Assembly: GCA_964436735.1 (NCBI GenBank) | Contig: CAYTFM010000100.1 | Span: forward strand, 1 to 26,461 | Length of the DNA: 26,461 nt | DNA from: an uncultured Victivallales bacterium | GTDB lineage: Bacteria > Verrucomicrobiota > Lentisphaeria > Victivallales > GWF2-38-69 | Reading direction: 5' to 3' | Shown here: positions 2,334 to 25,752 of the stretch, piece after piece | Layout: each line of letters starts with the position of its first letter | How positions within the stretch are numbered: the first letter of the stretch is position 1 | Position numbers and translations under genes: made by a program | The notes under the pieces: model-generated | Databases searched by the model: none | What the model was told of the DNA's origin: nothing | The model's input: only the letters and a program-made list of their open reading frames with translations

Positions 2334-2912
2334 ATGGATTCCGTGTTCAGCACACATTTCGCGCATACCCTGTACTGGTGCATGGCGGTGTTCGGTTCGA
2401 CGTTTCTGGTGATCCAACTGATCATGACGCTGTTCGGCTTCGGAATGGATCATGCGGATGTCGACGCGACCTCGGACGGGGTGTTAGGCCCCGACGCCCA
2501 TCATGGAGATCTCAGCGGCGTGGGGACGTTCAATCTATTCTCGGTCAGATCGCTGTTCGCGTTCGTCACCTTCTTCGGCTGGGGCGGCGTCTTCTGGGGC
2601 GACAACCTCCTGGGATTCTGCGCCTCCTTCGGTCTCGGGGTTGCGATGATGTTCGTCACGGCCTCCATCTTCTACTTCATGATGAAACTGCAGGAGAGCG
2701 GCAACATCAGATCCTGTGACATGGTCGGCAAGACGGGATCCGTCTACATGACGATTCCGGCTGGCCGCGAGAAACATGGGATCGTGACGGTCTCGATGGG
2801 CACCTGCACCCGTGAGGTGATGGCCGTCGCGGACGTCGAGCTCAAAACCGGCGTCGCCGTGAAGCTGACGTCCTGCGTCGATGGCAAACGCTATTTCGTC
2901 GAAAAGTGCTGA
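2334..2912 (+). CDS. NfeD-like (YqiJ/YuaF-type) membrane protein, the usual partner of flotillin
   Basis: Three N-terminal TM helices are followed by a C-terminal OB-fold-like segment (GKTGSVYMTIPAGREKHGIVTVSMG...VAVKLTSCVDGKRYFV). The RBS AAAGGTGG lies 7 nt upstream, and the gene sits directly upstream of an SPFH/flotillin gene, as in yqiJK/yuaFG operons. Confidence 0.6.
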   Translation: MDSVFSTHFAHTLYWCMAVFGSTFLVIQLIMTLFGFGMDHADVDATSDGVLGPDAHHGDLSGVGTFNLFSVRSLFAFVTFFGWGGVFWGDNLLGFCASFGLGVAMMFVTASIFYFMMKLQESGNIRSCDMVGKTGSVYMTIPAGREKHGIVTVSMGTCTREVMAVADVELKTGVAVKLTSCVDGKRYFVEKC

Positions 2913-3023
2913 GTTGGTTATTGCCGTAATCTCATCTACAGGATGTGAACTATTCACGCTGCGCAATCTTGCAAACAGAAGAAGTCTTGAACTCAAACAG
3001 GAAATAATCAAAGGGAGGTGTGT

Positions 3024-4625
3024 ATGGGACCGATGATTCTGGTAACCATTATGATCGTCGTCTTCATTGTCATCACGCTCATGATGGTGGTGGGGCGCTA
3101 CAAGAAATGTCCGTCGGACCGGATCATGGTGATCTACGGAAGGACGGGGGGGCAGAAGCGTGCCGCGCGCTGCATCCACGGCGGTGCGGCGTTTGTGTGG
3201 CCGGTGCTCCAGGACTACGGGTTCCTGTCATTGCGTCCCCTGCAGATCGAAGTCAGCCTGGAGAATGCGCTGAGCAAGCAGAACATCCGCATCAGCACGC
3301 CGTCAATCTTCACCGTTGGCATCAGCACGGACGAGGCGATCATGGGCAATGCGGCCGAGCGTCTGTTCGGTTTGCATCCCGACGCCATCAGCGAGCTTGC
3401 CCGCGACATTATCTTCGGTCAGTTGCGGCAGGTGATCGCCTCGATGACGATCGAGGAGATCAACGCCGACCGCGAGACCTTCTTGAACAACGTGATGAAC
3501 AACGTCGAGAGCGAGCTCAACAAGATCGGTCTCAAGCTGATCAACGTCAACGTCAAGGACATCACCGACGAAAGCGGCTACATCGCCGCTATCGGCAAGC
3601 GGGCTGCCGCCGAGGTCATCAACAAGGCCGCCGCCGAGGTCGCCGAGGAGGAGCGCAAAGGGCGCACCGGCGAGGCCGAGGCGCGGAAGGCTCAGCGCAT
3701 CTCCGTGGCGAATGCGGAAGCTCTTGCCGCGTCAGGTGAGGCGGAGGCGAAGAAGTCCCAGCGCGTCGCCGTGGCGAACGCCGACGCCGCCGCCGTCTCT
3801 GGTGAGGCCGAGGCCCAGAAATCCCAGCGCGTCGCCATCGCCAACGCCGAGGCCGAGGCCGCCTCCGGTGAGGCCGATGCCGACAAGAACAAGCGTATCG
3901 CCATCAAGCAGGCCGACGCCACCGCGGTGGGCGGCGAGAACATTTCAGCCATTGAGATCGCCAAGTCCAACGCCATCAGATCCGAGCAGGAGGCTGAGGC
4001 CTTCCGCAAAGCCGAGGCGGCCAGGCGGATCGCCGAGGCCGAGATCGAACGCGCCAAGTTCGAGGCCGAGCAGAAGGCCCAGGTCGCCCGCGCCAACATG
4101 GAGCGCGAGCGTCAGCGCGCTGAGATCATCGTCCCCGCCGAAATCAGAAAACAGCAAATCGAGATCGCCGCCGAGGCCGAGGCCGAGAAACTGCGCCGCG
4201 AGGCCCGAGGCCAGGCCGACGCCATCTATGCGAAACTGGAAGCGGAAGCCAAAGGTAATTTCAATGTCTTGAAGGCCAAGGGCGAAGGCTTCAAGGAGAT
4301 CGTCCAGGCCTGCATGAACGACTCCAACACCGCCGCCACCATGCTGCTCATCGAGAAACTCGAGTCCATCGTCGAGCTGCAGACGAAAGCCATCTCCAAT
4401 CTCAAGATCGACAAGATCACCGTCTGGGACGGCGGCAGCTCCGCCGATGGCAAGGGCGCGACCGCCAACTTCCTCAGCGGCATGGTCAAGAGCCTTCCGC
4501 CCCTGCACGAGGTCGCGGGGATGGCGGGCATCGAGCTGCCCGACTACCTCGGCAAGATGAAGTTCTGCAAGGAGAAGGATGGCGTGGCGCACGCTGCCGA
4601 GACGGAGAAGAATCATAAAGCGTAA
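3024..4625 (+). CDS. Flotillin-like SPFH-domain protein (FloT/YqiK family) with a long Ala/Glu coiled coil
   Basis: The protein has an N-terminal TM helix, an SPFH core (LQIEVSLENALSKQNIRISTPSIFTVGISTDEAIM...TIEEINADRETF) and an EA-rich repeat region. The RBS AGGGAGG lies 6 nt upstream of ATG 3024; the ORF-track start at 3018 is a GTG within that spacer. Confidence 0.8.
   Translation: MGPMILVTIMIVVFIVITLMMVVGRYKKCPSDRIMVIYGRTGGQKRAARCIHGGAAFVWPVLQDYGFLSLRPLQIEVSLENALSKQNIRISTPSIFTVGISTDEAIMGNAAERLFGLHPDAISELARDIIFGQLRQVIASMTIEEINADRETFLNNVMNNVESELNKIGLKLINVNVKDITDESGYIAAIGKRAAAEVINKAAAEVAEEERKGRTGEAEARKAQRISVANAEALAASGEAEAKKSQRVAVANADAAAVSGEAEAQKSQRVAIANAEAEAASGEADADKNKRIAIKQADATAVGGENISAIEIAKSNAIRSEQEAEAFRKAEAARRIAEAEIERAKFEAEQKAQVARANMERERQRAEIIVPAEIRKQQIEIAAEAEAEKLRREARGQADAIYAKLEAEAKGNFNVLKAKGEGFKEIVQACMNDSNTAATMLLIEKLESIVELQTKAISNLKIDKITVWDGGSSADGKGATANFLSGMVKSLPPLHEVAGMAGIELPDYLGKMKFCKEKDGVAHAAETEKNHKA
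3669..3932 (+). repeat. 4 x 66-nt in-frame tandem repeats encoding 22-aa flotillin EA repeats
   Basis: Units begin at 3669, 3735, 3801 and 3867 (ggYgaggcSgaggcS...). They encode EAEARKAQRISVANAEALAASG, EAEAKKSQRVAVANADAAAVSG, EAEAQKSQRVAIANAEAEAASG and EADADKNKRIAIKQADATAVGG. They also generate the spurious Pro/Arg-rich ORFs in the other frames (3712..4272 +, 3692..4099 -). Confidence 0.7.
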
Positions 4626-15298: not shown

Positions 15299-15333
15299 GA
15301 GGCGATGCATCGCCTCGCTTATTGTGTACTTTT
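15299..15333 (+). terminator. Perfect 18-bp palindrome GAGGCGATGCATCGCCTC plus a T-rich tail; putative bidirectional terminator between the convergent GH operon and hsdM
   Basis: The palindrome is at 15299-15316. It is followed on the plus strand by gcttattgtgtactttt. It lies 2 nt from the hsdM stop (15319-15321). Confidence 0.35.
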
Positions 15334-16782
15334 GAGATCTTCGGCGATGGTGGCGAACTGTTCCAAGGCGGCCTCCAGGTCGTCGGTTATCTCCTGTGCG
15401 ATGACCTCCGGGGCGGGAAGATTGGCGGACTCCTCCAGCGAGTCATCCTTCAGCCAGAAGATGTCCAGGTTCACCTTGTCGCGCTTCAGCAGCTCCTCGC
15501 AGGTGAAGCCCTTGAAGCGTTCCGACTCCTTGCGTTCGTGACGGTTCGCCGGATTGAAGCGGGTGACGAAGTCGTCGAGGTCGGATCGCTTGAGCGTATT
15601 CTCTTTGAGCGTGAAATGCAGGTTGGTGCGCAGGTCGTAGATCCAGAGCTTATCCGTCCACGGCTTTTCCCGCGCCGGCTTGCGGTCGAAGAAAAGGACG
15701 TTCGCCTTCACCCCCTGGGCGTAGAAGATGCCGGTGGGCAGGCGCAGCAGCGTGTGGACGTCGGCCTGCTTGAGAAGGGCGCGGCGGATCGTCTCTCCGG
15801 CCCCGCCCTCGAAGAGGACGTTATCAGGTAGGACCACCGCCGCCCGGCCGTTCTGCTTGAGGATCGTGAAGATGTGCTGGAGGAAGTTGAGCTGCTTATT
15901 GCTCGTGGTGGCCCAGAAGTCGTCGCGGTTGATGATGAGCGACTCCTTTTGTTGTTCCCCCGCCTCGTTGACGATCGTCACGCTGCTTTTCTTGCCGAAG
16001 GGCGGATTGGCGAGCACCATCTCGTACTCGCCGTGCTTTCCGGCGAGGGCGTCCTTGGTGACGACCGGCAGATCGCTGTCGGAGTCGCCGCCGCTGCCGT
16101 GCAGCAGCAGGTTCATGGCGCACAGCCGCGTCACGCCGTCCACAAGCTCGATGCCGTAGAGCGTGCTGTTCTTGAGACGCTTCTTCTGCTCGCGGTCGAG
16201 CGAATGGCTTTTGACAAGGTAGTCATGCGCCGCCAGCAGGAAGCCGCCGGTGCCGCAGGCGGGGTCGCAGATGGCGTCGCCCGGCTTCGGGGCCATCACG
16301 TCGACCATGGCGGCGATCAGGGGGCGCGGCGTGAAATATTGCCCGGCTCCCCCCTTCACGTCCTCGGCGTTCTTCTGGAGGAGCCCCTCGTAGGCGTCGC
16401 CCTTGACGTCGGAGGAGAGGCTCGACCACTGCTCCTTGTCGATCAGGTCGACGATCAGCCGCCGAAGCTTGGCGGGATCCTGGATCTTGTTCTGCGCCTT
16501 GCGGAAGATGACGCCGAGCATCCCGGGCCGTTTCCCAAGCTCCTCAAGGGTGTGTCGGTAGTGCGTCTCCAAGTCGTCGCCATCAAGCCGCAGGAGCGAC
16601 TCCCAGTTGAACCCTTTTGGGACGGGCGAGTCCTTCTTGAACGGCGGCTTGCTTTGTTCGTCGGCCATCTTGAGGAACAGCAGATAGGTCAACTGTTCGA
16701 CATAGTCGCCATACGACAGGCCGTCGTCCCTCAGGATATTGCAGTAGTTCCATAGCTTTGCGACAAGTGCTTCAGATCTCAT
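15319..16782 (-). CDS. hsdM: Type I restriction-modification system methyltransferase subunit HsdM
   Basis: HsdM N-terminal helix bundle (LWNYCNILRDDGLSYGDYVEQLTYLLFLKMADEQ), YFTPRPLIAAMV, AdoMet motif I DPACGTGGFL and catalytic NPPFG are present. The RBS GGGAGA precedes the start. Confidence 0.9.
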   Translation of the reverse strand: MRSEALVAKLWNYCNILRDDGLSYGDYVEQLTYLLFLKMADEQSKPPFKKDSPVPKGFNWESLLRLDGDDLETHYRHTLEELGKRPGMLGVIFRKAQNKIQDPAKLRRLIVDLIDKEQWSSLSSDVKGDAYEGLLQKNAEDVKGGAGQYFTPRPLIAAMVDVMAPKPGDAICDPACGTGGFLLAAHDYLVKSHSLDREQKKRLKNSTLYGIELVDGVTRLCAMNLLLHGSGGDSDSDLPVVTKDALAGKHGEYEMVLANPPFGKKSSVTIVNEAGEQQKESLIINRDDFWATTSNKQLNFLQHIFTILKQNGRAAVVLPDNVLFEGGAGETIRRALLKQADVHTLLRLPTGIFYAQGVKANVLFFDRKPAREKPWTDKLWIYDLRTNLHFTLKENTLKRSDLDDFVTRFNPANRHERKESERFKGFTCEELLKRDKVNLDIFWLKDDSLEESANLPAPEVIAQEITDDLEAALEQFATIAEDLKSTQ

Positions 16783-16802: not shown

Positions 16803-17675
16803 TTACAAATCTCTATCAAGTAATTCTTTTACCCACAGTCGGTCACGGTAGGCTCTCAAATAGAGGCGAGCAGCGGTAGAAAACTCAGCTTGAGCTCTGA
16901 CTTTTTTGATGAGTTCTTTTTTGTGATACAAATAATTAGACTCGTTTCCGCCAGCCTTTGCGTCATCTCCTTTTAAGACATGTTCCTCAATATCTATTGC
17001 GAGTTGTTTCCGCTTTCTCACCAATGCAATTTGCTTCAAATGGTATAGTTCAATGCTTGCCTCTACTCGATCAATTGTCATCTGATCACTCTTTGCGGGA
17101 TGAGGAGATCCATCGGGGAGGAATGTAAGGAGTTTTGTGTCGTCGACATTCACCGGATCTAACAATTTTGATCGCTCGCAAGGATCACTTTTACTATGAG
17201 CGTATGATGGAGGCGGAATTATAGGAAAATGGTCTTGCTTGCCACCTTCTGTTCCGCCGATATCTCGCCTCCTACAGTTGCAGAATGTGCAGGATAAACG
17301 GAAATTTTTCCAATCGAAGGCAAGCCACGTATAGCCAGGATGTGTATCTTCCTCAATGACAGAGTTTTTTGGGCGGAAATGATCAACGGACATGTCAGAG
17401 CGGTCTTGTTTAGTTTCACAATACCAACATTTGTCATGACTTGCTTCCCGCAGTGCTTCTTTAGCAGCACTCCATACCGATGATTTTAAATTGATTGCCT
17501 TGTGTCTTGCCTCAAGGCAGATGACATTTAACTCACTTCCGGTTTTCCCTTTTGATTCAGCTTCATCTTTAGCTGCAGTCACCTTTCCCTCAACAAACCT
17601 TTCAGCTTCCTCTACTATTTTTTTCCAATCGGAAGGGAGACAGCAGCAAACGTCATCCTGAAGGATAAACCTCAT
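16803..17675 (-). CDS. HNH endonuclease, Septu PtuB-like (TIGR02646-type)
   Basis: The HNH core reads CWYCETKQ...SVDHFRPKN...WKNFRLSCTFCNCRR (C-x2-C, DH, N, C-x2-C). A strong RBS GAGGAAGG precedes it. Its ATG overlaps the stop of the upstream ATPase ORF by 4 nt (ATGA). GC is about 43%. Confidence 0.65.
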   Translation of the reverse strand: MRFILQDDVCCCLPSDWKKIVEEAERFVEGKVTAAKDEAESKGKTGSELNVICLEARHKAINLKSSVWSAAKEALREASHDKCWYCETKQDRSDMSVDHFRPKNSVIEEDTHPGYTWLAFDWKNFRLSCTFCNCRRRDIGGTEGGKQDHFPIIPPPSYAHSKSDPCERSKLLDPVNVDDTKLLTFLPDGSPHPAKSDQMTIDRVEASIELYHLKQIALVRKRKQLAIDIEEHVLKGDDAKAGGNESNYLYHKKELIKKVRAQAEFSTAARLYLRAYRDRLWVKELLDRDL

Positions 17676-20600
17676 ATCTTGCCTTCCTCATGCTCAATCT
17701 CATCCAATATTTTGTCGGTCTCTTTGGCAAGGTTCTCGATGTCCTTTTTGTTCCAAGCCGGTTTATGCAGAATATCACGAGCTTTTCGTCTGCGCCCAAG
17801 AGCCTGTAAGTAGATCCGATAATAAGGGTCAGAACTAGCGGATTTGAACCCTAAGTGCTCAACTTCTTTAGTCAAATCTTGTAGTTTTTTCAGATCGTCT
17901 ACCGAAACTCTTTTCTTTCCGGCCAATTCCGCATGTTTGTCGAGCAAGCACAGTGTCTCATCATCCAAATCAGATTTCAGCCCAAACATTTCGCTTGTAA
18001 GAATTCCTGTAAAGCCCATGCCTCTTAGGTTTTCGCCAGCCAGGGCTGCGAAGCACTCCTCAGTTTGTTCGCGGCGTTTTAAAAGGTGAATATTCTCCTT
18101 GAGCAGTCCAGCGATTGCTAAAGGATCATGTGTCGATAGAAGCACCTGGCTATTCAACCGTTTCTCAAGTTCTTCGAATGGAAGACGCTTGGGAGAGTTT
18201 TTGTCGGTGACATCCCCTACTAAGGCGTCCAAAAGCAGATGCAAGTATCCAAGCTGCCAGTGGGGATTCAAGTGGGTATCTGGTTCATCCAGAAGGACGA
18301 GAGATTGATTCATCTTCGTGAAACGAAGCAGGCCGAGAACCATCATAAGCTGTTGTTCTCCTTCGCTCATTTCTTTGAAGGTTACAACGGTCTGCTTTGT
18401 TGCTGTTGCGTTTATCCGAATGCGGATTCGCACCTCGTGAATGATTGATGAGAAGTCAGTGCATTCTAAGGCGACAAAGAAGCTGGTCGGGTCAGCATAT
18501 TCCGAGGCTAGTTTTTGCAGGTGTTTTTTACTCGGAAGAAGCAGGAAATAATGATCGCCTGCGCTTTCCTGAAATCCATCATCCACTCGTTGTTGTAAGA
18601 CCATATGCGCAATCGAGTGGCGGCGAAGGTGTTCCAGAACGGGACGAAGTAGTCCGTCTGCGCCCCAGAAATCCTCAGGATTGTTGTTGCGATACCATCG
18701 CGGACGCTTTAAAACAAAGAGAACTGATTCGAGATCTTCGATGCGTAGATGCTTCTTCAAAAAACTGTGGATTCCCGGGTCATCCTCATAAAAAAAAGCA
18801 AGCAGCGCATATTTCGCATGTTGGGTTTCAGCGTTGAAGAATCGTCTTTCTTCCAACAGACGTGCAAGGGTTTCCTCATCGTACGTTTTCTGCTTTAATA
18901 GCCTATTGTAGTGTTCTTGTTTCGGTTCTGAGAAAAGGTCAGCAAACCTTTTGCTTGGGCCGGAGTAGTATCCAAATACAAAATGGGGTAATGGAATCTC
19001 TTCCCGTTTACATATATTAAAGTCGATATTGCCCGATTTATGATTGCGTTTCGATGCTATCTTTGCTTGGGGCTTGCGCAAATTGATTTGCCAATCAATC
19101 TCGACCAATTGCCCATCTATCTCGTAACGAATGCGATAGTCTTCCAAGCCAGCCTGCGGTGTCCATTTGTCTTTTGTTTGCCATTTATAGAGGTCGCGAA
19201 AGATAGCAACAAGTACTTCAAACAGGTTCGATTTTCCCGTGCCGTTCCAGCCGAGAAGCACGTCGACTGCATGGTTCGGATCAAATATCACTGAATAGTC
19301 TTCTAAATTCTTGAACTTTTTGATCCAAATTTCATGAAGACGGAAGGGGCCAGACGGTTTTCTATTAGAATTATGCCGATGATGAGATTTCTTTGCAAGT
19401 TGCTTTTGCCCTGTAAAGCTCTTAATGAGTTTTGCCGAATCTGCGATTGTGTCATAGAACTCATAAACCTCTTCGCGTCCGAATTGTGCGGCATTGAATA
19501 AATCCCTAGCAGTGGGTGTTCCGACAGCTACACTTAACGCAGTTTCAAGCACACGTTTCCGGGCTTCAGATGATTTCATGGAAGAAACTTTCTTGCTCTT
19601 ATGAAGCTTTCTTTGCTTGGGCTGTTCTGATGGAGTCGCAATTAGGTTTACCTTGGGGACATGGATATGTTCCAGCAGCTTTCTTTCAAGCCCATCACAT
19701 GGGTCTTGTGACACCAGTTGGCCAGAGAAGGCCTGTTGAAGGATTTTTTGGCGAAGCAGAATTCCCCGTTGGAGGTTGGTATTCACCACCGCCTCCAACT
19801 CCTCCACCACGCTCATCCGTCGCTCGACCTCCGTAACAATTCTCGTCTGCTCGTCAAGCGGGGGGAGAGGAAACGGAATCGTTGAGAATTTCTCTGCTCC
19901 AAGATGGTTTATGCCGACGCCAACAGCGACCTGAGCAAAAATGCCGTTAATGTAAAAGTGCCTAAGCACAAGAAGAGGGAATCTCGAATCGAGGAGAACA
20001 GGTTGCAGGCGAATGATAGTGTTCTGAAAGCAACATTGAGGCAATTCTTCGTGCCAGATTGCCGGTTTTCCCACTTGGGATATGCTACCAGACGCCTCGG
20101 ATATGATTAGATCCCCACGTTTCAATAGATAACGCTCTCTCTCGTCTGGTGTGAATTCCATCTCAAGCACATCGCTCAAATCGAGACCGTTCTCAGTTAT
20201 GTTTGCGGCGCGCATGTATTTTGTCGGAAAGTCCCTCGAAATATTCTTTGGCGAGCGTTGGCGACCTAATTGAACAGAGCCCAGTTGTCCCACACTCGCC
20301 CACGTCCATCCTTCTGGGAGCTGGGGGAGGTTGGCTGTGTCGGGAGGGGCGGGTTCTTTGTATATGCCGCGGCCGGACCATTTCCGGCGGCGTACAGTGA
20401 GGATGCGCTTCAGGAGTTGCTCCCCATTCTCATACACTTCTGATTTCTTTCCAGTTACATCTGGCTTGGCCAATTCCGCTTCGGTTGGAACTATCTTGCC
20501 CTCGCAAGCAGCCTTGAGCACGGCGGCGCGGTAACGCTTGAGATTTGCCTGAACCCGTTTCAATGCCGCCATCCCCGCCTCCAAACGCGTGAACTGCTTC

Positions 20601-21076
20601 TCGATCTCCGCGACGATAAGACGTTGTTCTGGCAAGGAAAAAGAAGGAATCAAGAATGAAGAAATATCTTTGGGACGAACGGCAGGATAGAGCGCACCCT
20701 GTACTTTTTGACACATCTCATCAATGAAATCAGGTGTCTGGACGGCGTAGAAAAGGAATCTGGGCTCCTCGCCTTTTGCACGCAGCACATGAAACCCAGT
20801 TGAACCAATGGAGCCGTCAAGGTCAGGCGGAACAAGTGCCACAGCATTCAGATTAGGGCGTGTCATTGACACGAGAACGTCGCCCATTCTCAAAACCTGC
20901 TTTGCCCGACTTGGAGCTTGGGCCACTGGCAGTGTCTTAGGATCGACGATCCGTTTTGTCTCACGATCAATGCTACTGATGTCCACGTAACTGAATTCAT
21001 GCCTACCACTTGGAGGACCGGTTTGTTCAACCCGCGCCTCAGTCATATCCCCAATTGTTTTCCCTGCGTTCTTCAC
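17672..21076 (-). CDS. hsdS: In-frame fusion of a complete type I RM specificity subunit (HsdS, aa 1-455, two TRDs) to a PtuA/OLD-like ABC ATPase (aa ~577-1134) through a Lys-rich ~120-aa linker
   Basis: The HsdS part has TRD1, the central conserved region IPSFSLPEQRLIVAEIEKQFTRLEAG, TRD2 beginning LPEGWTWASVGQL, and the distal conserved region PFPLPPLDEQTRIVTEVERRMSVVEELEAV...LLRQKILQQAFSGQLV. No stop follows. The linker is ...KLHKSKKVSSMKSSEARKRV...KKSHHRHNSNRKPSG. The ATPase part begins FRLHEIWIKKFKNLEDYSVIF, has Walker A VLLGWNGTGKSNLFE, Walker B/D-loop SLVLLDEPDTHLNPH and H-loop VLLSTHDP. The start is GTG at 21076, overlapping the upstream gene stop by 4 nt. Confidence 0.7.
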   Translation of the reverse strand: MKNAGKTIGDMTEARVEQTGPPSGRHEFSYVDISSIDRETKRIVDPKTLPVAQAPSRAKQVLRMGDVLVSMTRPNLNAVALVPPDLDGSIGSTGFHVLRAKGEEPRFLFYAVQTPDFIDEMCQKVQGALYPAVRPKDISSFLIPSFSLPEQRLIVAEIEKQFTRLEAGMAALKRVQANLKRYRAAVLKAACEGKIVPTEAELAKPDVTGKKSEVYENGEQLLKRILTVRRRKWSGRGIYKEPAPPDTANLPQLPEGWTWASVGQLGSVQLGRQRSPKNISRDFPTKYMRAANITENGLDLSDVLEMEFTPDERERYLLKRGDLIISEASGSISQVGKPAIWHEELPQCCFQNTIIRLQPVLLDSRFPLLVLRHFYINGIFAQVAVGVGINHLGAEKFSTIPFPLPPLDEQTRIVTEVERRMSVVEELEAVVNTNLQRGILLRQKILQQAFSGQLVSQDPCDGLERKLLEHIHVPKVNLIATPSEQPKQRKLHKSKKVSSMKSSEARKRVLETALSVAVGTPTARDLFNAAQFGREEVYEFYDTIADSAKLIKSFTGQKQLAKKSHHRHNSNRKPSGPFRLHEIWIKKFKNLEDYSVIFDPNHAVDVLLGWNGTGKSNLFEVLVAIFRDLYKWQTKDKWTPQAGLEDYRIRYEIDGQLVEIDWQINLRKPQAKIASKRNHKSGNIDFNICKREEIPLPHFVFGYYSGPSKRFADLFSEPKQEHYNRLLKQKTYDEETLARLLEERRFFNAETQHAKYALLAFFYEDDPGIHSFLKKHLRIEDLESVLFVLKRPRWYRNNNPEDFWGADGLLRPVLEHLRRHSIAHMVLQQRVDDGFQESAGDHYFLLLPSKKHLQKLASEYADPTSFFVALECTDFSSIIHEVRIRIRINATATKQTVVTFKEMSEGEQQLMMVLGLLRFTKMNQSLVLLDEPDTHLNPHWQLGYLHLLLDALVGDVTDKNSPKRLPFEELEKRLNSQVLLSTHDPLAIAGLLKENIHLLKRREQTEECFAALAGENLRGMGFTGILTSEMFGLKSDLDDETLCLLDKHAELAGKKRVSVDDLKKLQDLTKEVEHLGFKSASSDPYYRIYLQALGRRRKARDILHKPAWNKKDIENLAKETDKILDEIEHEEGKI

Positions 21077-22170
21077 TCTTCATCCTTTGCTTTGTCATTC
21101 CATGCGAATTTGCGGATCAAGGTGTTGAAGCGGCTCCATTTATGGGTCAGGAACTGATAACGTCCCGCGACGATTCCCGGAGAGACACCGAGTTCGTTTG
21201 CGATCGTCTTGATCTCGGACTCGATCTGCGAGACCTTGATGCGCCCATTGTACCTGGCGGGGATCAAGGTTTCGGCGGCAAACTCGTCCGCCTGTTTTTC
21301 CCGTGGATCATCCTTGGAACCGTCGTTGATCATGAGATCTTTCTTCGAGTCATGCAAAACGTGCCCGAGTTCATGGAAGAAGGAAAACCATAGTTTATCT
21401 TCGCCTTTGCCACGCAAATTCAGCAGGATCATAGCTTTTGTCGGCGTCAACCACCGGGTCGCTCCGTTCCACGGCGCTTTTTTCATTTCCTTAACCAGTG
21501 CCAACGCCACGCCACACTCAGCACATATCCTTCGCATTTCAGCGACCATTGCTGATGGGTCTGCCTTGCAGGACAGCGAACGCAAAGCATGTATTTGCTT
21601 CAGAAGAGCAGAACGATCATAAGGACGGCAGTCGCACTTCTGGGCTTGCAACTCGCCCATGCGGATCCATGAGGATGCAGGGCCAGGCAGAGACTCAAAG
21701 CATTGAGAACGCCTTGCCGCCACTTCGGGTCTTTCCCATAACTCGCACCATGCCCGCACACTGCTGACGCCATAAAACTTCAACGTGTCGCATAGCAACG
21801 CATGCTTGTCGCTGTTTTGGGGAATAACTTTCCTGCTAATGAGCTCGGAGGTGGGAATTGTCTTGAGCCACTCGAGATCAGACGCCAAACGCTGTTTTTC
21901 CTCCAGCTTGGACAGTTGCTCGCGGTAGTTGAGCTCAAGATTGTTCCAGAACCGGGCGGGAGAGCCAAAGACAAGTTCAAGCCGATTGGCGGTTTCGAGT
22001 GTTATCGGCTGTTCGCCTTTGAAGATTCGATTAATGGTCTGTTGCGTCGTTTCAAGCCGAATGGCAAGCTCTTGCTGCGTCCAGCCATTGAACTCCATGT
22101 GCTCGCGTATAGTTTCGCCTGGTGGAACCGCATAATCCGGGTCGTATGTATATTTGCGTTTCGCTTTCAT
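21073..22170 (-). CDS. HigA-like XRE-HTH antitoxin domain fused to an ImmA/IrrE-family (COG2856) zinc metallopeptidase
   Basis: The N-terminus is IREHMEFNGWTQQELAIRLETTQQTINRIFKGEQPITLETANRLELVFGSPARFWNNLELNY, a HigA/VapI-type HTH. The C-terminus has HEXXH (FFHELGHVLHD) followed by EKQADEFAAETLIP, the ImmA/IrrE signature. A strong RBS GGAGGAA precedes it. Its ATG overlaps the higB-like stop (ATGA). Confidence 0.7.
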   Translation of the reverse strand: MKAKRKYTYDPDYAVPPGETIREHMEFNGWTQQELAIRLETTQQTINRIFKGEQPITLETANRLELVFGSPARFWNNLELNYREQLSKLEEKQRLASDLEWLKTIPTSELISRKVIPQNSDKHALLCDTLKFYGVSSVRAWCELWERPEVAARRSQCFESLPGPASSWIRMGELQAQKCDCRPYDRSALLKQIHALRSLSCKADPSAMVAEMRRICAECGVALALVKEMKKAPWNGATRWLTPTKAMILLNLRGKGEDKLWFSFFHELGHVLHDSKKDLMINDGSKDDPREKQADEFAAETLIPARYNGRIKVSQIESEIKTIANELGVSPGIVAGRYQFLTHKWSRFNTLIRKFAWNDKAKDEE

Positions 22171-22529
22171 TGGCGGTTCCTCCGCTGGTATTTCTGGTCA
22201 TGCGTGTCTTCGATGTCGATTACTTCAATAGCTGTCACTTGCTCCAAGTCGATGCCTCCGTCAGTTTTTGTTGGTACGGGAATATTTGCCGGTATGAAGA
22301 GCAACCTATATGGATACTGGAGGTCAACCGAAAAAACGCCTTTCCTATTGACAAGCTCATGGCACTGAGGCGGTGGTAGGTAAGAGATGTCACTTAGCGT
22401 CTCCCCCGCTTTCAGTTCCGCCAGGCGTTGCCGGAGTTTTGAGGCGCACTGCGGGCCAAGCTCCCTGACGCCCGCCTTCTCCACATCGCAGATCTTTTTC
22501 AACTTGTTTGCTCTAAATGATATCTCCAT
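22167..22529 (-). CDS. HigB-like toxin (RelE/ParE superfamily, plasmid-killer family)
   Basis: The 120-aa product reads MEISFRANKLKKICD...LRQRLAELKAGETLSDISYLPPPQCHELVNRKGVFSVDLQYPYRLLFIP. This matches the HigB pattern and it lies immediately upstream of a HigA-type HTH gene. The start coordinate is taken from the ORF track; my manual count of the start codon differs by 1 nt. Confidence 0.6.
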   Translation of the reverse strand: MEISFRANKLKKICDVEKAGVRELGPQCASKLRQRLAELKAGETLSDISYLPPPQCHELVNRKGVFSVDLQYPYRLLFIPANIPVPTKTDGGIDLEQVTAIEVIDIEDTHDQKYQRRNRQ

Positions 22530-22530
22530 G

Positions 22531-22600
22531 TCGCTCCGTCTTCAATAAATAATTAACATTCTATGTTAATAAAAACAAGCAAATAGAGTTTACTTTTTTT
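22531..22600 (-). promoter_or_regulatory. Promoter/operator region for the higB-led operon with a perfect palindrome TTAACAT-tct-ATGTTAA
   Basis: On the minus strand: TTGTTT, a 17-nt spacer, TAATTA, then GGAG, then ATG. The 17-bp palindrome at 22554-22570 overlaps the spacer, which is the typical autoregulatory operator arrangement for a TA HTH antitoxin. Confidence 0.45.
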
Positions 22601-22761
22601 GAAAACTTCCTCCCGGAAGATTTCCCGATGTTCGTTGGGAATACCTCGTCTCCGGTTTTACCCGAGTCCTTTGGTGTTCCGCCCCCCCGGGGATGGGCGT
22701 ACCGCCGGGCAAACTTGCTTCCTCCCCAGAATGCGGGCGGGACGCCCACGGTCCCAGGGAG

Positions 22762-25557
22762 TCATGCAACAAGCGCCTGGTTCAACTCGTCCAGGATGCC
22801 GTTCAAGTCACCGCCGAAGAGCTGCGAGGCCTTGCCGAGGCCGCCTTGCTGGCTGAAGGGGGCGTAGTCGAAGTCCTCCGGCTCGACGCTGAGGCTGGTG
22901 GCGATGTGGTCGCGGATAAGGTTGAGCCAGGAGAGCTGCTCGGAGGCGAAAACCGTGCCGGCCTTGGCCTTGTCCATGAGCCATTCGTTGAACCGCTCAT
23001 GGACGGACTCGGCGAAGGGCTGAAGCAGCGGTTGCTGCTCCAGGGCGAAGCGGACGAGCGCGACGAGGTCGGCGAAGCGTCCGGTCTGCGAACGTCCTTT
23101 GACCTTGCCGGGGCGGGTGGCGGCGAAGGCGTTCCAGAGGCGGTCCTCCGTCCATGCGGCGTGGTTCTCGCAAAGCTTCCGCTCCAACTCCTTGAGCATC
23201 TGCTCGGTGACGCGTTGGCGGTAGGGGCGGCTGTAAAGGATTTGCAGGGCGGAGATCTCCGCGTGATGCTGTTCGAGGTAGGCGCGGAAGGATTGCACAA
23301 GATTGGCGGCCCGCTCCTTGGCAGCGGCGTCGAACCCTTGCTCGACCACGGCGTCGATGGTGACGGTGTCGATGGTCTGCTCGCTGGCCTTCTTGACGGC
23401 GAGGATTTTCTCGCGGAGTTCGGGGCTGTCGAAGGGAAGGCAAGCGGTGGCGACAAGGTCGGCCTGTGCCGCGGCAAGATCCTCCCGCGAGGACTGGAAG
23501 TCCGTGGGCTTGCCCGTGACGGCTTTCGCGTGGACGAGATCCGGATCGAGGGCGTCGAGGAGGGCTCGGGCGAGATCGGGAAGGGATTTGCCGCCCGCAA
23601 GCTCCTTGAGCCCCTTGGCGTCTTCCTGCGTGCTATCCTGACTGAGCCGCGCGAGGCGTCCGGCAAGGGAGCTGATGGTGTCCTCGTTGCGCTTGCCGAG
23701 GGCGACGCCGAGGAGGAGATCTTTGAGCGGCACTGTGCGTTTGCGCTCGAGGGGGCGGGAGTCGGTCTTGTCGCTTTCGCAGACGCCGACGGCGTCGACG
23801 ATCACGAAATGCGTCTTGGCCCGGGCGTCGGCCCCGCTGACGGACTGCAGGTCGGTCGGGCTGAGCACGCGGGTGCCGCGCCCCTTCATCTGCTCGAAAT
23901 AGACCCGGCTGCGGACGTCGCGCAGAAAGAGGAGGCATTCCAGCGGCTTGATGTCCGTGCCGGTGGCGATCATGTCCACTGTGACGGCGATACGCAACTG
24001 CGGCGAGGTGCGGAACAATTGGATAAGATCCTCGGCCTTGGCCGGCTTGCCGGTCTCCGGATGCTTGGACTGGTAGGTGATCTTCTTGGCGAAGTCGTTG
24101 CCCTTGCCGAAGACCTCCCGGACGATGTGGACGACATCCTCGGCATGCGAGTCGTCCTTGGCGAAGATCAGCGTCTTGGGCACCATGGCGCGTCCGGGGA
24201 ACAGCTCCGTGAAGAGGGCGTCTTTGAAGGCTTTGATGACGGTGCGGATCTGGGAGGGGACGACGACGGAGCGGTCCAGCTCCTGTTTGGTGTATTCCAG
24301 ATCCTCGTCGAGGCGCTCCCAGCGGCGGGCGCGGGTCTCCTTGCTGCGCTTGTCGACGTAGAAGCCCTTCTCGACAAGGCCGCCCTGTTCCGAGACCTGC
24401 GTCTTGATCCGGTAAACCTCGTAGCCGACGTTCACGCCGTCGGCCACGGCGCGTTCGTGTCTGTATTCCGTGACAAGGTTCTGATGAAAGAAGCCGATGG
24501 TCTGCTTGGAGGGGGTGGCGGTGAGGCCGATGATGAAGGCGTCGAAGTAGTCGAGGACCTGCCGCCAGAGGTTGTAGATGGAGCGATGGCACTCGTCGGT
24601 GACGATGAAGTCGAAGGTCTCGATGGGGATCGCCGGGTTGTAGGCGACCTCGCGGGGGCGCTCGTTCGCCTGGGAGAGCTCGAAGGCGGACTTCTCGTCG
24701 AGATCCTCGTCAAGCTCCTCGCCCCGCAGCATCGCGTAGAGCCGCTGGATGGTGCAGACGCAGACGCGGGCCACCGGATCAAACTGGTTGGAGTTGAGCC
24801 GCTGGACGTTGTGCAACTCGGTGAACTTGCGGCCGGTGTCGGGCGTGACGAACTGGTCGAACTCGGATTTGGCCTGACGTCCAAGGTTGGCGCGGTCGAC
24901 GAGGAAGAGGACGCGGCGGGCTCCGGCGTGTTTGATCAACCGGTAGATGAAGGCGCAGGCGGTGAAGGTTTTGCCCGCACCGGTGGCCATCTGGATCAGG
25001 GCGCGCGGGTGGTTGGCGGCGAAGGACTGTTCCAGCCGCGTGATGGCCTCGGTCTGGCAGGTGCGCAGACCGCGCGAGACAAGCGGATGAGCGGCGGGCG
25101 CGGTTTGCAGGCGCATGCGCAGGGTGTCGGGCTCGGTGGCCATGGCGGACAAGGTTTCGGGTCGATGGAAGGAGAAGATTTGGCGGGAACGTGGATCAGG
25201 ATCGCGTTCGTCCCTGAAAAAGGTTTCGACGCCGGTGGATTCGTAGCGGAAGGGAAGCGATCCAGCCTTGGGCCTCAGGAACTCGGGGAGCGTGTCGCCA
25301 TAATAAGCCGTTTGGTCGGCGACGATGGAAAGGGTCTTGCCCTCGCGTTTCGCTTCGACAACCCCGACAGGCGCGCGGTTCGCGATCAGGAGGTAGTCGC
25401 ATCGGCCGCCGGGCAGCGGCACTTCGCGCAAGGCGACGCCTGGTGAGGCTCCAAGGTTGCACCTCACATAGTCCTGAACCAGCCAGCCCGAGTCGGCAAG
25501 CATCCGGTCGATCTTCTCACGTGCCTTTTGTTCAGGCGTTCCTGGCATTCGTGCCAT
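22762..25557 (-). CDS. hsdR: Type I restriction enzyme R subunit HsdR (SF2 helicase/endonuclease)
   Basis: The N-terminus EQKAREKIDRMLADSGWLVQD is HsdR-like. Helicase motif I is LIQMATGAGKTFTA and motif II VTDECHRS; the remainder is the long SF2 body. Start is the ATG at 25557 with GAGGA upstream. The ORF-track extension to 25635 adds 26 residues with no RBS. Confidence 0.85.
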   Translation of the reverse strand: MARMPGTPEQKAREKIDRMLADSGWLVQDYVRCNLGASPGVALREVPLPGGRCDYLLIANRAPVGVVEAKREGKTLSIVADQTAYYGDTLPEFLRPKAGSLPFRYESTGVETFFRDERDPDPRSRQIFSFHRPETLSAMATEPDTLRMRLQTAPAAHPLVSRGLRTCQTEAITRLEQSFAANHPRALIQMATGAGKTFTACAFIYRLIKHAGARRVLFLVDRANLGRQAKSEFDQFVTPDTGRKFTELHNVQRLNSNQFDPVARVCVCTIQRLYAMLRGEELDEDLDEKSAFELSQANERPREVAYNPAIPIETFDFIVTDECHRSIYNLWRQVLDYFDAFIIGLTATPSKQTIGFFHQNLVTEYRHERAVADGVNVGYEVYRIKTQVSEQGGLVEKGFYVDKRSKETRARRWERLDEDLEYTKQELDRSVVVPSQIRTVIKAFKDALFTELFPGRAMVPKTLIFAKDDSHAEDVVHIVREVFGKGNDFAKKITYQSKHPETGKPAKAEDLIQLFRTSPQLRIAVTVDMIATGTDIKPLECLLFLRDVRSRVYFEQMKGRGTRVLSPTDLQSVSGADARAKTHFVIVDAVGVCESDKTDSRPLERKRTVPLKDLLLGVALGKRNEDTISSLAGRLARLSQDSTQEDAKGLKELAGGKSLPDLARALLDALDPDLVHAKAVTGKPTDFQSSREDLAAAQADLVATACLPFDSPELREKILAVKKASEQTIDTVTIDAVVEQGFDAAAKERAANLVQSFRAYLEQHHAEISALQILYSRPYRQRVTEQMLKELERKLCENHAAWTEDRLWNAFAATRPGKVKGRSQTGRFADLVALVRFALEQQPLLQPFAESVHERFNEWLMDKAKAGTVFASEQLSWLNLIRDHIATSLSVEPEDFDYAPFSQQGGLGKASQLFGGDLNGILDELNQALVA

Positions 25558-25752
25558 GCCTTTCCTCGATATGGGGTCGGACAGGAAACAGCGTATACTT
25601 ATTCTATGACCCGGGGCGCGGTTTTCAAGTTGCATTCAAGGGGTGATCCCCTCGTCAACCTGGGAGATCGCCGATTGTTTTATTGGAATATTTGCCGGCC
25701 AGGATGTAATTATTGGGCTGAAATCTCGAAAACAGCCTAATCATGAGGAGCT

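Follow-up and report, generated by a model that had tools for sequence, protein, structure and literature searches.

Does a single reading frame of an uncultured Victivallales bacterium genuinely join HsdS, the specificity subunit of a type I restriction-modification (RM) enzyme, to the PtuA ATPase of the "Septu" defence system, and, if it does, what relation between the two systems does the join reveal? The frame lies in contig CAYTFM010000100.1 (assembly GCA_964436735.1), the full 26,461 nucleotides (nt) of which are referred to here as "the window", and it had been singled out by an initial annotation made from the sequence alone. The present analysis finds that this open reading frame (ORF) of 1134 amino acids (aa) genuinely joins a complete HsdS in frame to an ABC ATPase of the PtuA type, and that the HNH nuclease PtuB is encoded directly downstream. 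Comparison with related loci further indicates that the fusion is the covalent version of a widespread hsdM/hsdS/ptuA/ptuB cassette, in which HsdS carries about 100 extra C-terminal residues. PtuA and PtuB have already been borrowed by retrons, the way in which Septu senses infection is unsettled, and the fusion ties PtuA to the subunit with which a type I methyltransferase reads DNA; gene fusion is also strong genomic evidence that two proteins belong to one complex.

The fused reading frame and its modules

The fusion gene, hsdS::ptuA, occupies positions 17672..21076 of the minus strand and comprises 1134 codons and a stop, as judged from the ORF call and from PADLOC, Pfam, AlphaFold2 (AF2) and Foldseek results. 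The coordinates of the initial annotation thus proved exact, with the strand to be read as minus; a plus-strand reading of the same interval was rejected, because its translation is riddled with stops. The gene starts with a GTG that has AAGGA ahead of it and that overlaps the stop codon of the upstream gene in the sequence GTGA.

The HsdS module (aa 1-455, 19712..21076, minus strand) consists of a first target recognition domain (TRD1), a conserved helix, a second such domain (TRD2) and a second conserved helix. The PADLOC profile Specificity_I (PDLC03127, 571 positions) aligns to aa 8-562 of the fusion with an E value of 4e-82, while the Pfam family Methylase_S is significant for TRD2 only (aa 254-415). 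The AF2 model of the fusion, which has a mean pLDDT (predicted local distance difference test) of 75.7, contains two beta-rich TRDs and long conserved helices at 148-192 and 407-450, and in Foldseek the N-terminal half superposes on the solved HsdS structures 3okg and 5ybb_D (TMt 0.68) and on the M.EcoKI model 2y7c. PADLOC, AF2 and Foldseek therefore agree with the earlier description of a full two-TRD HsdS: the second conserved helix, ...LLRQKILQQAFSGQLV, terminates at aa 455 with no stop codon after it, and an HsdM is encoded in the same operon. TRD1 of the window protein begins about 15-20 aa later than in relatives that share its TRD type.

The PtuA module (aa 579-1134, 17675..19342, minus strand) is identified by PADLOC, Pfam and PDB profile matches and by its fold. 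PADLOC PtuA (PDLC00293) covers aa 579-1132, corresponding to profile positions 2-525 of 527, with an E value of 7e-148, and Pfam AAA_21 and AAA_15 both match the C-terminal part of the fusion. A motif search places the Walker A sequence GWNGTGKS at aa 609-616 (19229-19252), the signature SEGEQQ at aa 904-909 (18350-18367), the Walker B sequence LLDEPDTHL at aa 928-936 (18269-18295) and the H-loop LLSTHDP at aa 979-985 (18122-18142), all on the minus strand; these four motifs coincide with or adjoin residues that are invariant in 22 fused homologues, and the assignment to an ATPase of the AAA_15/AAA_21 type, with Walker A, Walker B and H-loop where they had been claimed, is borne out.

A search of the PDB sequences with the single PtuA and PtuB sequences returned no match. 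The best matches of the fold search and of a PDB search with family profiles are the PtuA chains of retron type I-A and of Septu, the Foldseek ranking of the C-terminal half being led by the retron chains 9n6b, 9kjx and 9nnb, with the Septu chains 8ee4 and 8eea also among the best solved structures. In the profile search the likeness of the window PtuA to the solved E. coli PtuA is limited to the ATPase motifs, and the NCBIfam PtuA and PtuB equivalog scores of the window proteins lie far under their cut-offs. The ptuB gene (16803..17675, minus strand) encodes an HNH nuclease of 290 aa that matches PADLOC PtuB (PDLC00330) over its full length with an E value of 2e-77, its matches to NCBIfam PtuB and to TIGR02646 falling under the cut-offs. 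Its ATG overlaps the TGA of the fusion gene by 4 nt (ATGA), and its HNH motif, CxxC...DH...N...CxxCN, is complete (17277-17429). The window thus has the two parts of a Septu pair, a PtuA with all four ATPase motifs and an HNH PtuB directly downstream of it.

Between the two modules the initial annotation had seen a Lys-rich linker that runs on without a stop. The frame is indeed open, but the stretch also holds a conserved small domain. A basic disordered linker (aa 456-499, 19580..19711, minus strand; pLDDT below 50 for aa 458-501) is followed by a small helical domain (aa 500-560, 19397..19579, minus strand), and this in turn by a second short basic linker (aa 561-578, 19343..19396, minus strand), which was delimited by a pLDDT below 50 for aa 559-574 and by comparison of junctions and which ends at the fusion point ...KPSGPF/RLHEIWI.... 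In the AF2 model the small domain forms four helices within aa 503-555 with a pLDDT of about 80 and with disorder on both sides. The HsdS profile PDLC03127 spans this domain, reaching aa 562, and unfused HsdS proteins encoded ahead of ptuA end in the same domain (...L..L.EAG.PL...ELF..AGF....VE.FY.EL...), extending a median of 103 aa past the end of the HsdS profile with a shared conserved motif. The small domain is part of HsdS, and its conservation ahead of both fused and separate PtuA makes this "tail" a candidate docking element for PtuA.

The junction itself can be read from the unfused relatives, in which the hsdS stop is followed by ATG-R-L-H-E-L-W-I..F-K-N-L, mostly with an ATGA overlap, where the window has ...KPSGPF-RLHEIWIKKFKNL. 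The PtuA part accordingly starts at aa 579, with the sequence that follows the initiator Met in the unfused relatives. An internal Met at 19579 (aa 500) was considered as a PtuA start and rejected, since both the profile match and the unfused relatives place the beginning of PtuA at aa 579; as had been remarked, no ribosome-binding site precedes this Met, the window being devoid of a Shine-Dalgarno-like motif there. The codon (19577-19579), which lies at the boundary of linker and tail, could serve as a start in every one of 20 fused genes, being ATG in 19 and GTG in one. The residues around it are not conserved among these 20 genes, and the unfused HsdS tails have no fixed Met at the equivalent position, with some Met nearby in 58 of 102. 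This pattern may reflect internal initiation, yielding a 635-aa tail-PtuA product that could be needed in free form for completing an oligomer, or the codon may instead be a relic.

The most immediate objection to a fusion seen in one contig is that the hsdS stop has been lost through a mistake in sequencing or assembly, or through a recent pseudogenising read-through. The window contig is known from one NCBI record, and the fusion protein is alone in its cluster. The fusion is, however, conserved. A word-indexed search found about 22 distinct proteins of 1000-1180 aa that combine Methylase_S with AAA_15/AAA_21, at 26-61% identity. An exhaustive HMMER search with the PtuA part alone as query, against 1.84 billion cluster representatives, gave 221 clusters at E <1e-30. 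Its full-length matches of at least 48% identity are all fused, with PtuA starting at residue 540-616 of proteins of 1100-1180 aa, while matches of at most 44% identity are about 500-570 aa long or shorter, the full-length ones aligning from residue 2. In a metagenome scan likewise ranked by PtuA alone, fusion is seen at each of the 19 closest loci (44-77% identity), L102 among them being frameshifted, and at none of the other 61. Because more than 30 independent fused loci from varied samples and phyla share the same junction with the frame intact on both sides, an artefact is hardly credible, and the check proposed at the outset, whether homologues are fused or separate, is answered by a conserved fused clade.

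Since the searches with PtuA alone split fused from unfused proteins by identity, the fused proteins are placed by sequence comparison in one monophyletic clade, clade A. Its hosts include Verrucomicrobiota, Acidobacteriota, Cyanobacteriota (with Leptolyngbya sp. PCC 6406 among them), Planctomycetota, Geobacteraceae and Brevundimonas, and in Verrucomicrobiota, Acidobacteriota, Cyanobacteriota, Desulfobacterota and Alphaproteobacteria the fused state has survived the divergence of PtuA down to 45% identity. At three loci of the clade (L013, L021 and L102) the gene has an apparent frameshift and appears as two overlapping ORFs, from decay or from sequencing error in the assembly.

The hsdS-ptuA-ptuB cassette and its optional hsdR

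In order to place the fusion among its relatives, ORFs were called in 160 related loci and scored with profiles built from the alignment of fused proteins and with the PtuB, HsdM and HsdR of the window. At every locus that could be assessed (150/150), hsdS lies immediately upstream of ptuA on the same strand; this holds for 78 of 78 loci from the genome collection and for 72 of 72 from metagenomes, and the ten loci not assessable for hsdS all begin no more than about 350 nt from a contig end. The ptuB gene comes directly after ptuA, with a 4-nt overlap in 82 of 127 loci, and the hsdS stop and ptuA start overlap by 4 nt in 55 of the 119 unfused loci. The position of hsdM is either ahead of hsdS or behind ptuB, and hsdR, where present, is always upstream, the orders that include it being R-S-A-B-M (29 loci) and R-M-S-A-B (22 loci). 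The expectation that Septu is normally a stand-alone two-gene system consequently fails for this PtuA subfamily, which is always found directly after hsdS and beside hsdM. The fusion therefore carries a common linkage to its extreme and is no isolated novelty.

The cassette occurs in Acinetobacter nosocomialis, Enterobacter asburiae, Shewanella, Streptomyces, Rhizobium, Paraburkholderia, many Bacteroidota and Anabaena, as well as in E. coli and Pantoea. In the sequence records its genes are annotated as "restriction endonuclease subunit S", "AAA family ATPase", "hypothetical protein" and "DNA methylase". The phage collection contained no match, and a match was found in just 5 of 72,556 plasmids.

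An hsdR gene is found upstream in 55 loci and is absent from the vicinity of another 38 whose flanks reach 3.5 kb or more on each side, which is about 40% of those that can be assessed. A second HsdR profile was built from 24 matches to test for the effect of a weak detector, and detector failure was rejected as the explanation of the missing hsdR: the largest unexplained neighbours in these loci are housekeeping or unrelated genes, identified by Pfam as phosphoketolase, NmrA-like protein, peptidase S9, GlmS, GlmU, a NACHT protein, TraG and VgrG. Apparent HsdR matches at two loci of the fused clade (L089 and L091) are really type III Res helicases. In the fused clade beyond the window, no other assessable locus has an hsdR (0/6 in the genome set). 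At L085, whose PtuA is 77% identical to that of the window and is the closest in the metagenome scan, the ORF directly upstream (2444-3409) ends in a 54-aa match to the C-terminus of the window HsdR, which looks like the remnant of a lost or truncated hsdR.

The loci without a detected hsdR look functional from their sequence motifs. The NPPF motif of HsdM is kept in 74 of 74 such loci and in 51 of 51 with hsdR, and about 100 of 107 that lack a detected hsdR in their vicinity retain the Walker motifs of PtuA; a strict HNH pattern occurs in 29 of 53 PtuB ORFs where hsdR is present and in 36 of 94 where it is not. Two of these cassettes are ready experimental models in cultivable Enterobacterales. 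In E. coli KFu019 (L165, NZ_CP091700 4694458-4700134) a methylase, S, an AAA ATPase and a hypothetical protein are encoded without hsdR within an integrase-bearing island, beside toxin-antitoxin genes, and in Pantoea eucalypti the plasmid pEuc2 (L166) encodes S, an AAA ATPase, a hypothetical protein and a methyltransferase, again without hsdR.

The modules of the fused proteins have diverged to very different extents. Among 20 fused proteins the median pairwise identity is 67% for PtuA, 45% for the tail, 38-39% for the conserved HsdS helices and 20-21% for the TRDs; between the window and one related locus (L001) it is 81% for helix 1, 18% for TRD1, 21% for TRD2 and 78% for PtuA. These identities indicate an exchange of TRDs on a conserved effector, at loci without hsdR, which is the classical pattern.

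A second ATPase has also been joined to HsdS. In clade B (P0026 and L002-L004, with a Pyrinomonadaceae metagenome-assembled genome among its sources), HsdS is joined to an ATPase of the family TIGR04435, which scores 340.9 bits against a cut-off of 300. This fusion has no tail domain and keeps the internal Met where the two parts meet; next come the gene for a 381-aa protein, which resembles PDC-M62B/M01B and has a weak likeness to PtuB, and then hsdM, and no hsdR lies within the available 7 kb of flank on either side of L002-L004. The HsdS-ATPase fusion of clade B is independent of that of clade A.

The regularity of these loci bears on the view that a Septu pair merely came to lie inside a type I locus by chance, without any coupling, and that the fusion is a neutral accident. 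Defence systems do often sit in type I RM, BREX, DISARM and Hma loci (Payne et al. preprint), frameshifted copies of the fusion exist (L013, L021 and L102), and one small change can fuse the two frames because of the ATGA overlap of hsdS and ptuA. Chance embedding would, however, use other junctions as well, whereas ptuA stands right after hsdS at all 150 assessable loci, on whichever side hsdM lies. It is also at odds with the dedicated HsdS tail that accompanies ptuA, with the persistence of the fusion through the divergence of PtuA to 45% identity, and with the fact that fusion arose twice, the second time with another ATPase family. An uncoupled pair is accordingly judged improbable. The claim that the fusion tethers an effector to the methyltransferase core receives strong comparative backing from the conserved fusion, the linkage and the HsdS tail.

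Other domains are also found at the end of HsdS. Many members of this HsdS family that are 630-770 aa long (P0015-P0017, P0020, P0058 from Gemmata sp. SH-PL17 and P0074 from Rosistilla oblonga among them) carry a different, conserved C-terminal domain of about 210-250 aa, with the pattern ...GRTQL.K.L.L...GP.D..IYKLEG...AELFAT.YAAWNDLLIDGR...WH.SKKKF...GYVPTG.G, which has no Pfam match and is unlike the PtuA-linked tail. Further HsdS proteins are annotated with fused domains of the Vsr-like kind (PF04480/PF18741; P0022, P0060, P0075 and P0095), with GIY-YIG (P0110), with radical SAM (P0029), with an ImmA peptidase (P0051 and P0065) or with a Y1 transposase-like domain (P0049 and P0068). The HsdS C-terminus may thus be a general attachment point for effectors, and some of these fusions could be gene-calling artefacts.

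A possible restriction arm and its rivals

The reading preferred here, to which we give about an even chance, is that the M2S core of two HsdM and one HsdS would sense sequence and methylation on behalf of a nuclease arm, PtuA-PtuB, that is tethered to it and works beside or instead of HsdR. The further proposal that HsdS-linked PtuA-PtuB cassettes constitute a new class of ATP-dependent RM enzyme, in which an arm of ABC ATPase and HNH nuclease replaces HsdR (or, in the window, doubles it), is held more tentatively, at somewhat less than an even chance. Taken together, the fusion, a gene order that never varies and the many loci without hsdR suggest that a sizeable branch of Septu is under the control of sequence-specific methylation.

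In the mechanism envisaged, HsdS and two HsdM would form the usual M2S core, which reads a bipartite DNA site and its methylation. PtuA would be held on the C-terminus of HsdS, non-covalently by the tail in most relatives and covalently in the window, and would carry the HNH nuclease PtuB. On host DNA the core would methylate its own sites and the effector would stay silent; on foreign DNA the engagement of unmodified sites by the core would be signalled to the tethered ABC ATPase. ABC heads act as ATP-bridged dimers, and two HsdS::PtuA complexes would therefore come together. The pairing of PtuA heads would license PtuB to cut, the target being either the DNA bound by the core or another molecule, such as transfer RNA (tRNA). 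PtuA-PtuB would in this way form an alternative restriction arm, beside HsdR in the window and replacing it in the relatives without hsdR. In the solved PtuAB assemblies the number of PtuA chains is even, the entry titles giving PtuA:PtuB ratios of 4:2 (Ec78) and 2:1 (Ec83). A sensor joined to PtuA has a precedent in retron type I-A, where PtuAB has been co-opted through a sensor that binds PtuA physically, PtuAB being sequestered (PMC12819146).

Several points weigh against this proposal. The contact between HsdS and PtuA is inferred from sequence comparison beyond the covalent link of the fused clade, and the AF2 model, with a predicted TM-score (pTM) of 0.47, is uninformative about the arrangement of the domains. 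The genome-collection scan is biased towards hsdS-adjacent loci because it was ranked with the whole fused protein, a bias from which the metagenome scan, ranked by PtuA alone, is free. The hsdR counts cover the vicinity of each locus, so that an hsdR elsewhere in the genome is possible, and they rest on the ORF calls and the purpose-built profiles of this analysis. The shuffling of TRDs could be a neutral by-product of recombination with other hsdS genes. Known PtuAB, finally, can target tRNA-Tyr and not DNA, in a manner like abortive infection (PMC13096335, PMC11555353), which suits a guardian of the RM enzyme better than a restriction arm.

It is a guardian role, like those of PrrC and PARIS, that forms the strongest rival, a serious one though less probable than the sensor proposal. 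The M2S core would hold PtuA-PtuB inactive until a phage anti-restriction protein (a DNA mimic of the Ocr or ArdA kind, or an Stp-like peptide) or some other disturbance of the core releases or activates it; PtuB would then cut tRNA, possibly tRNA-Tyr, or nick DNA indiscriminately and so halt the infection, and a core without hsdR would serve as bait. PrrC is an ABC-type ATPase-nuclease within a type I locus that is switched on by inhibition of the enzyme, and PARIS combines an ABC ATPase with a nuclease and has Ocr as its trigger (PMC12707154; Payne et al. preprint 10.1101/2024.01.29.577857). PtuAB of stand-alone Septu and of retron-Eco7 cleaves tRNA-Tyr upon infection (PMC13096335, PMC11555353), that of retron I-A is sequestered by its bound sensor (PMC12819146), and the window does have an intact hsdR to protect. 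There is often nothing to guard, however, since hsdR is absent from the 38 assessable loci described above and from all other assessable loci of the fused clade, and the role of bait leaves unexplained both the retention of the methyltransferase motif (125/125) and the diversification of TRDs on a conserved PtuA. The initial annotation had offered two functions, TRD-directed use of the nuclease and a second line of defence comparable to PrrC or RloC. The latter presupposes an HsdR that is missing from about 40% of the assessable relatives, and the former is therefore favoured, without making a guardian role improbable.

The frequent absence of hsdR also admits a role outside defence, in which PtuA-PtuB would aid the methyltransferase as an ATP-driven loader, regulator, repair factor or nicking factor for M2S. 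Pairs of M and S without R are known as epigenetic regulators, and ABC ATPases of the SMC, Rad50 and RecF kind, which are among the PDB profile matches, act in DNA handling. The HNH motif of the window PtuB is complete, however, the closest likenesses of the two proteins are defence effectors, and the cassettes lie in islands, integrative and conjugative elements and plasmids beside other defence or toxin genes. This role is considered slightly less probable still than an uncoupled pair.

The locus shares features with several known systems. It resembles Septu in its adjacent ATPase and HNH pair, in the full-length PADLOC matches, in the PtuA fold and in its intact Walker and HNH motifs, but the window subfamily, which is known from sequence alone, follows hsdS, adjoins hsdM and is here fused. 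As in retron type I-A (Ec78/Eco7, Ec83), a separate sensing module coupled to PtuA would control PtuB (PMC12819146), the sensor here being the type I M2S core and not a reverse transcriptase with multicopy single-stranded DNA, and the coupling being covalent. Membership of retron type I-A was rejected: Pfam, PADLOC and NCBIfam find no reverse-transcriptase domain in the six genes of the operon (retron non-coding RNA was not searched for), and the neighbours at related loci are hsdS, hsdM and hsdR. PrrC and RloC likewise place a nuclease linked to an ABC-type ATPase by hsdS in a type I locus and are thought to be associated with RM (PMC12707154). PrrC, however, has its own nuclease on one chain and no fusion to HsdS, and it needs a complete, inhibitable R2M2S, while many of the loci compared here lack hsdR; a separate HNH protein and an ATPase fused to HsdS set the locus apart from both.

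With classical type I RM (R2M2S1) the locus has in common HsdM, a two-TRD HsdS, the shuffling of TRDs and, in the window, an EcoAI-like HsdR; it differs in an HsdS with a tail and an ABC ATPase, in the HNH partner and in that HsdR, an SF2 motor-nuclease, is dispensable in many relatives. A related family of ABC ATPases, TIGR04435, which NCBI curators had already connected with restriction by naming it "restriction system-associated AAA family ATPase", is itself fused to HsdS in clade B, where the partner is not a typical PtuB. The window protein scores 99.3 bits against its cut-off of 300, and its ATPase therefore belongs to a sister family. PARIS (AriA and AriB) is also a pair of ABC ATPase and nuclease, tied to anti-restriction through Ocr, and weak AriA profile matches occur here, but PARIS has no link to HsdS and the window has no Toprim/AriB partner; membership of PARIS was rejected. 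Membership of MADS was rejected as well, the scores being 24 bits against a cut-off of 400 for MAD5, 21 against 420 for MAD3 and 127 against 720 for MAD2.

The embedding of Septu in Hma, and of defence systems in type I loci, has been reported (Payne et al. preprint 10.1101/2024.01.29.577857). The HsdS-PtuA fusion, the obligate hsdS-ptuA-ptuB linkage, the HsdS tail and the cassettes without hsdR are undescribed in the searchable literature, which leaves out most subscription papers; within that scope the initial statement that no HsdS-ATPase fusion had been described stands for HsdS-PtuA. If the sensor proposal is true, the cassette represents a new restriction architecture, and if the guardian is, a new kind of RM guardian. 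In the former case a large branch of "Septu" would be the restriction arm of RM systems, and the reading of "orphan" M and S pairs and of Septu calls in censuses would change. The proposal is directly testable, since the cassette is present in E. coli, Enterobacter, Acinetobacter, Pantoea and Shewanella.

The window locus and its GC mosaic

The gene order along the minus strand of the window is hsdR, a spacer, a HigB-like gene, a gene for a helix-turn-helix (HTH) and ImmA-type protein, hsdS::ptuA, ptuB and hsdM, with successive 4-nt overlaps among the HigB-like, HTH-ImmA, hsdS::ptuA and ptuB genes. The neighbours of the locus are ordinary chromosomal genes, for an SPFH protein, a GntR/LacI-type regulator, glycoside hydrolases, a CBM9 protein and a prepilin-type protein. 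The hsdR gene (22762..25635, minus strand) encodes an EcoAI/type IB-like protein of 957 aa with Pfam matches to ResIII, EcoEI_R_C, SWI2_SNF2 and, weakly, HSDR_N; its matches to NCBIfam NF008521 and NF046051 fall under the cut-offs, and the nuclease and helicase motifs VVEAK (aa 92), ATGAGKT (aa 217) and DECH (aa 347) are present. The hsdM gene (15319..16782, minus strand) encodes an N6-adenine DNA methyltransferase of 487 aa (Pfam N6_Mtase, E 1e-66, and HsdM_N; PADLOC MTase_I, E 3e-193) with the motifs NPPF (15997-16008) and DPACGTGG (16243-16266). With HsdR beside M and S, the window contains the genes of a complete type I RM system.

The content of guanine and cytosine (GC) is uneven across these genes. 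It is about 0.63-0.66 over most of hsdR, and about 0.61 in hsdM, close to the 0.58 of the window as a whole, whereas the stretch from ptuB through hsdS::ptuA and the ImmA gene to the HigB-like gene has just 0.43-0.54. Each of the two shifts, near 16.8 kb and near 22.7 kb, is completed within a few hundred bases; across the other fused loci GC is even. The closest HsdM to that of the window (86% identity) is found at a locus (L163) whose PtuA is unfused and 41% identical and whose PtuB is 28% identical, and the locus L001, with PtuA 79% and PtuB 70% identical, has an HsdM of just 71% identity. The simplest reading of this mosaic is recombination: a low-GC cassette (the HigB-like gene, ImmA, hsdS::ptuA and ptuB) would have taken the place of the middle of a resident R-S-A-B-M operon, so that hsdM and hsdS::ptuA would differ in recent origin. 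Such a replacement would account for the presence of hsdR in the window alone among its clade, and it makes the fit of the window HsdM with the window HsdS an assumption.

Between hsdR and the HigB-like gene lies an AT-rich spacer of 232 nt (22530..22761, minus strand) with a 17-nt palindrome, TTAACATAGAATGTTAA, at 22553-22569 and a weak promoter-like match at 22545-22517 from a largely uninformative scan for promoters and terminators; the spacer may serve as promoter and operator for the operon of five genes that lies downstream. The small HigB/RelE-like gene (120 aa, 22167..22529, minus strand) matches Pfam HigB-like_toxin under the cut-off (E 0.004) and overlaps the next gene by 4 nt. That gene (21073..22170, minus strand) encodes a 365-aa protein in which a HigA-like HTH (Pfam HTH_3) is combined with an ImmA/IrrE M78 metallopeptidase (Pfam Peptidase_M78). 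The protein matches PADLOC PD-Lambda-2_B (E 2e-25) as well as capP and RmrA, comes just under the cut-off of the NCBIfam HigA antidote, and is a candidate regulator of the operon. The HigB-like/HTH-ImmA pair and the palindrome may together form an operon regulator that responds to damage or infection.

Long ORFs (up to 917 aa; for example 22693-25446 on the plus strand) run antisense to hsdR and hsdM, and since their composition is rich in Gly, Ala, Arg, Leu, Glu and Asp at a GC of 0.64 they are taken as artefacts of high GC and not as genes. A similar pair of HigB and ImmA genes lies about 3.5 kb downstream of hsdM at two of the related loci, L036 and L124.

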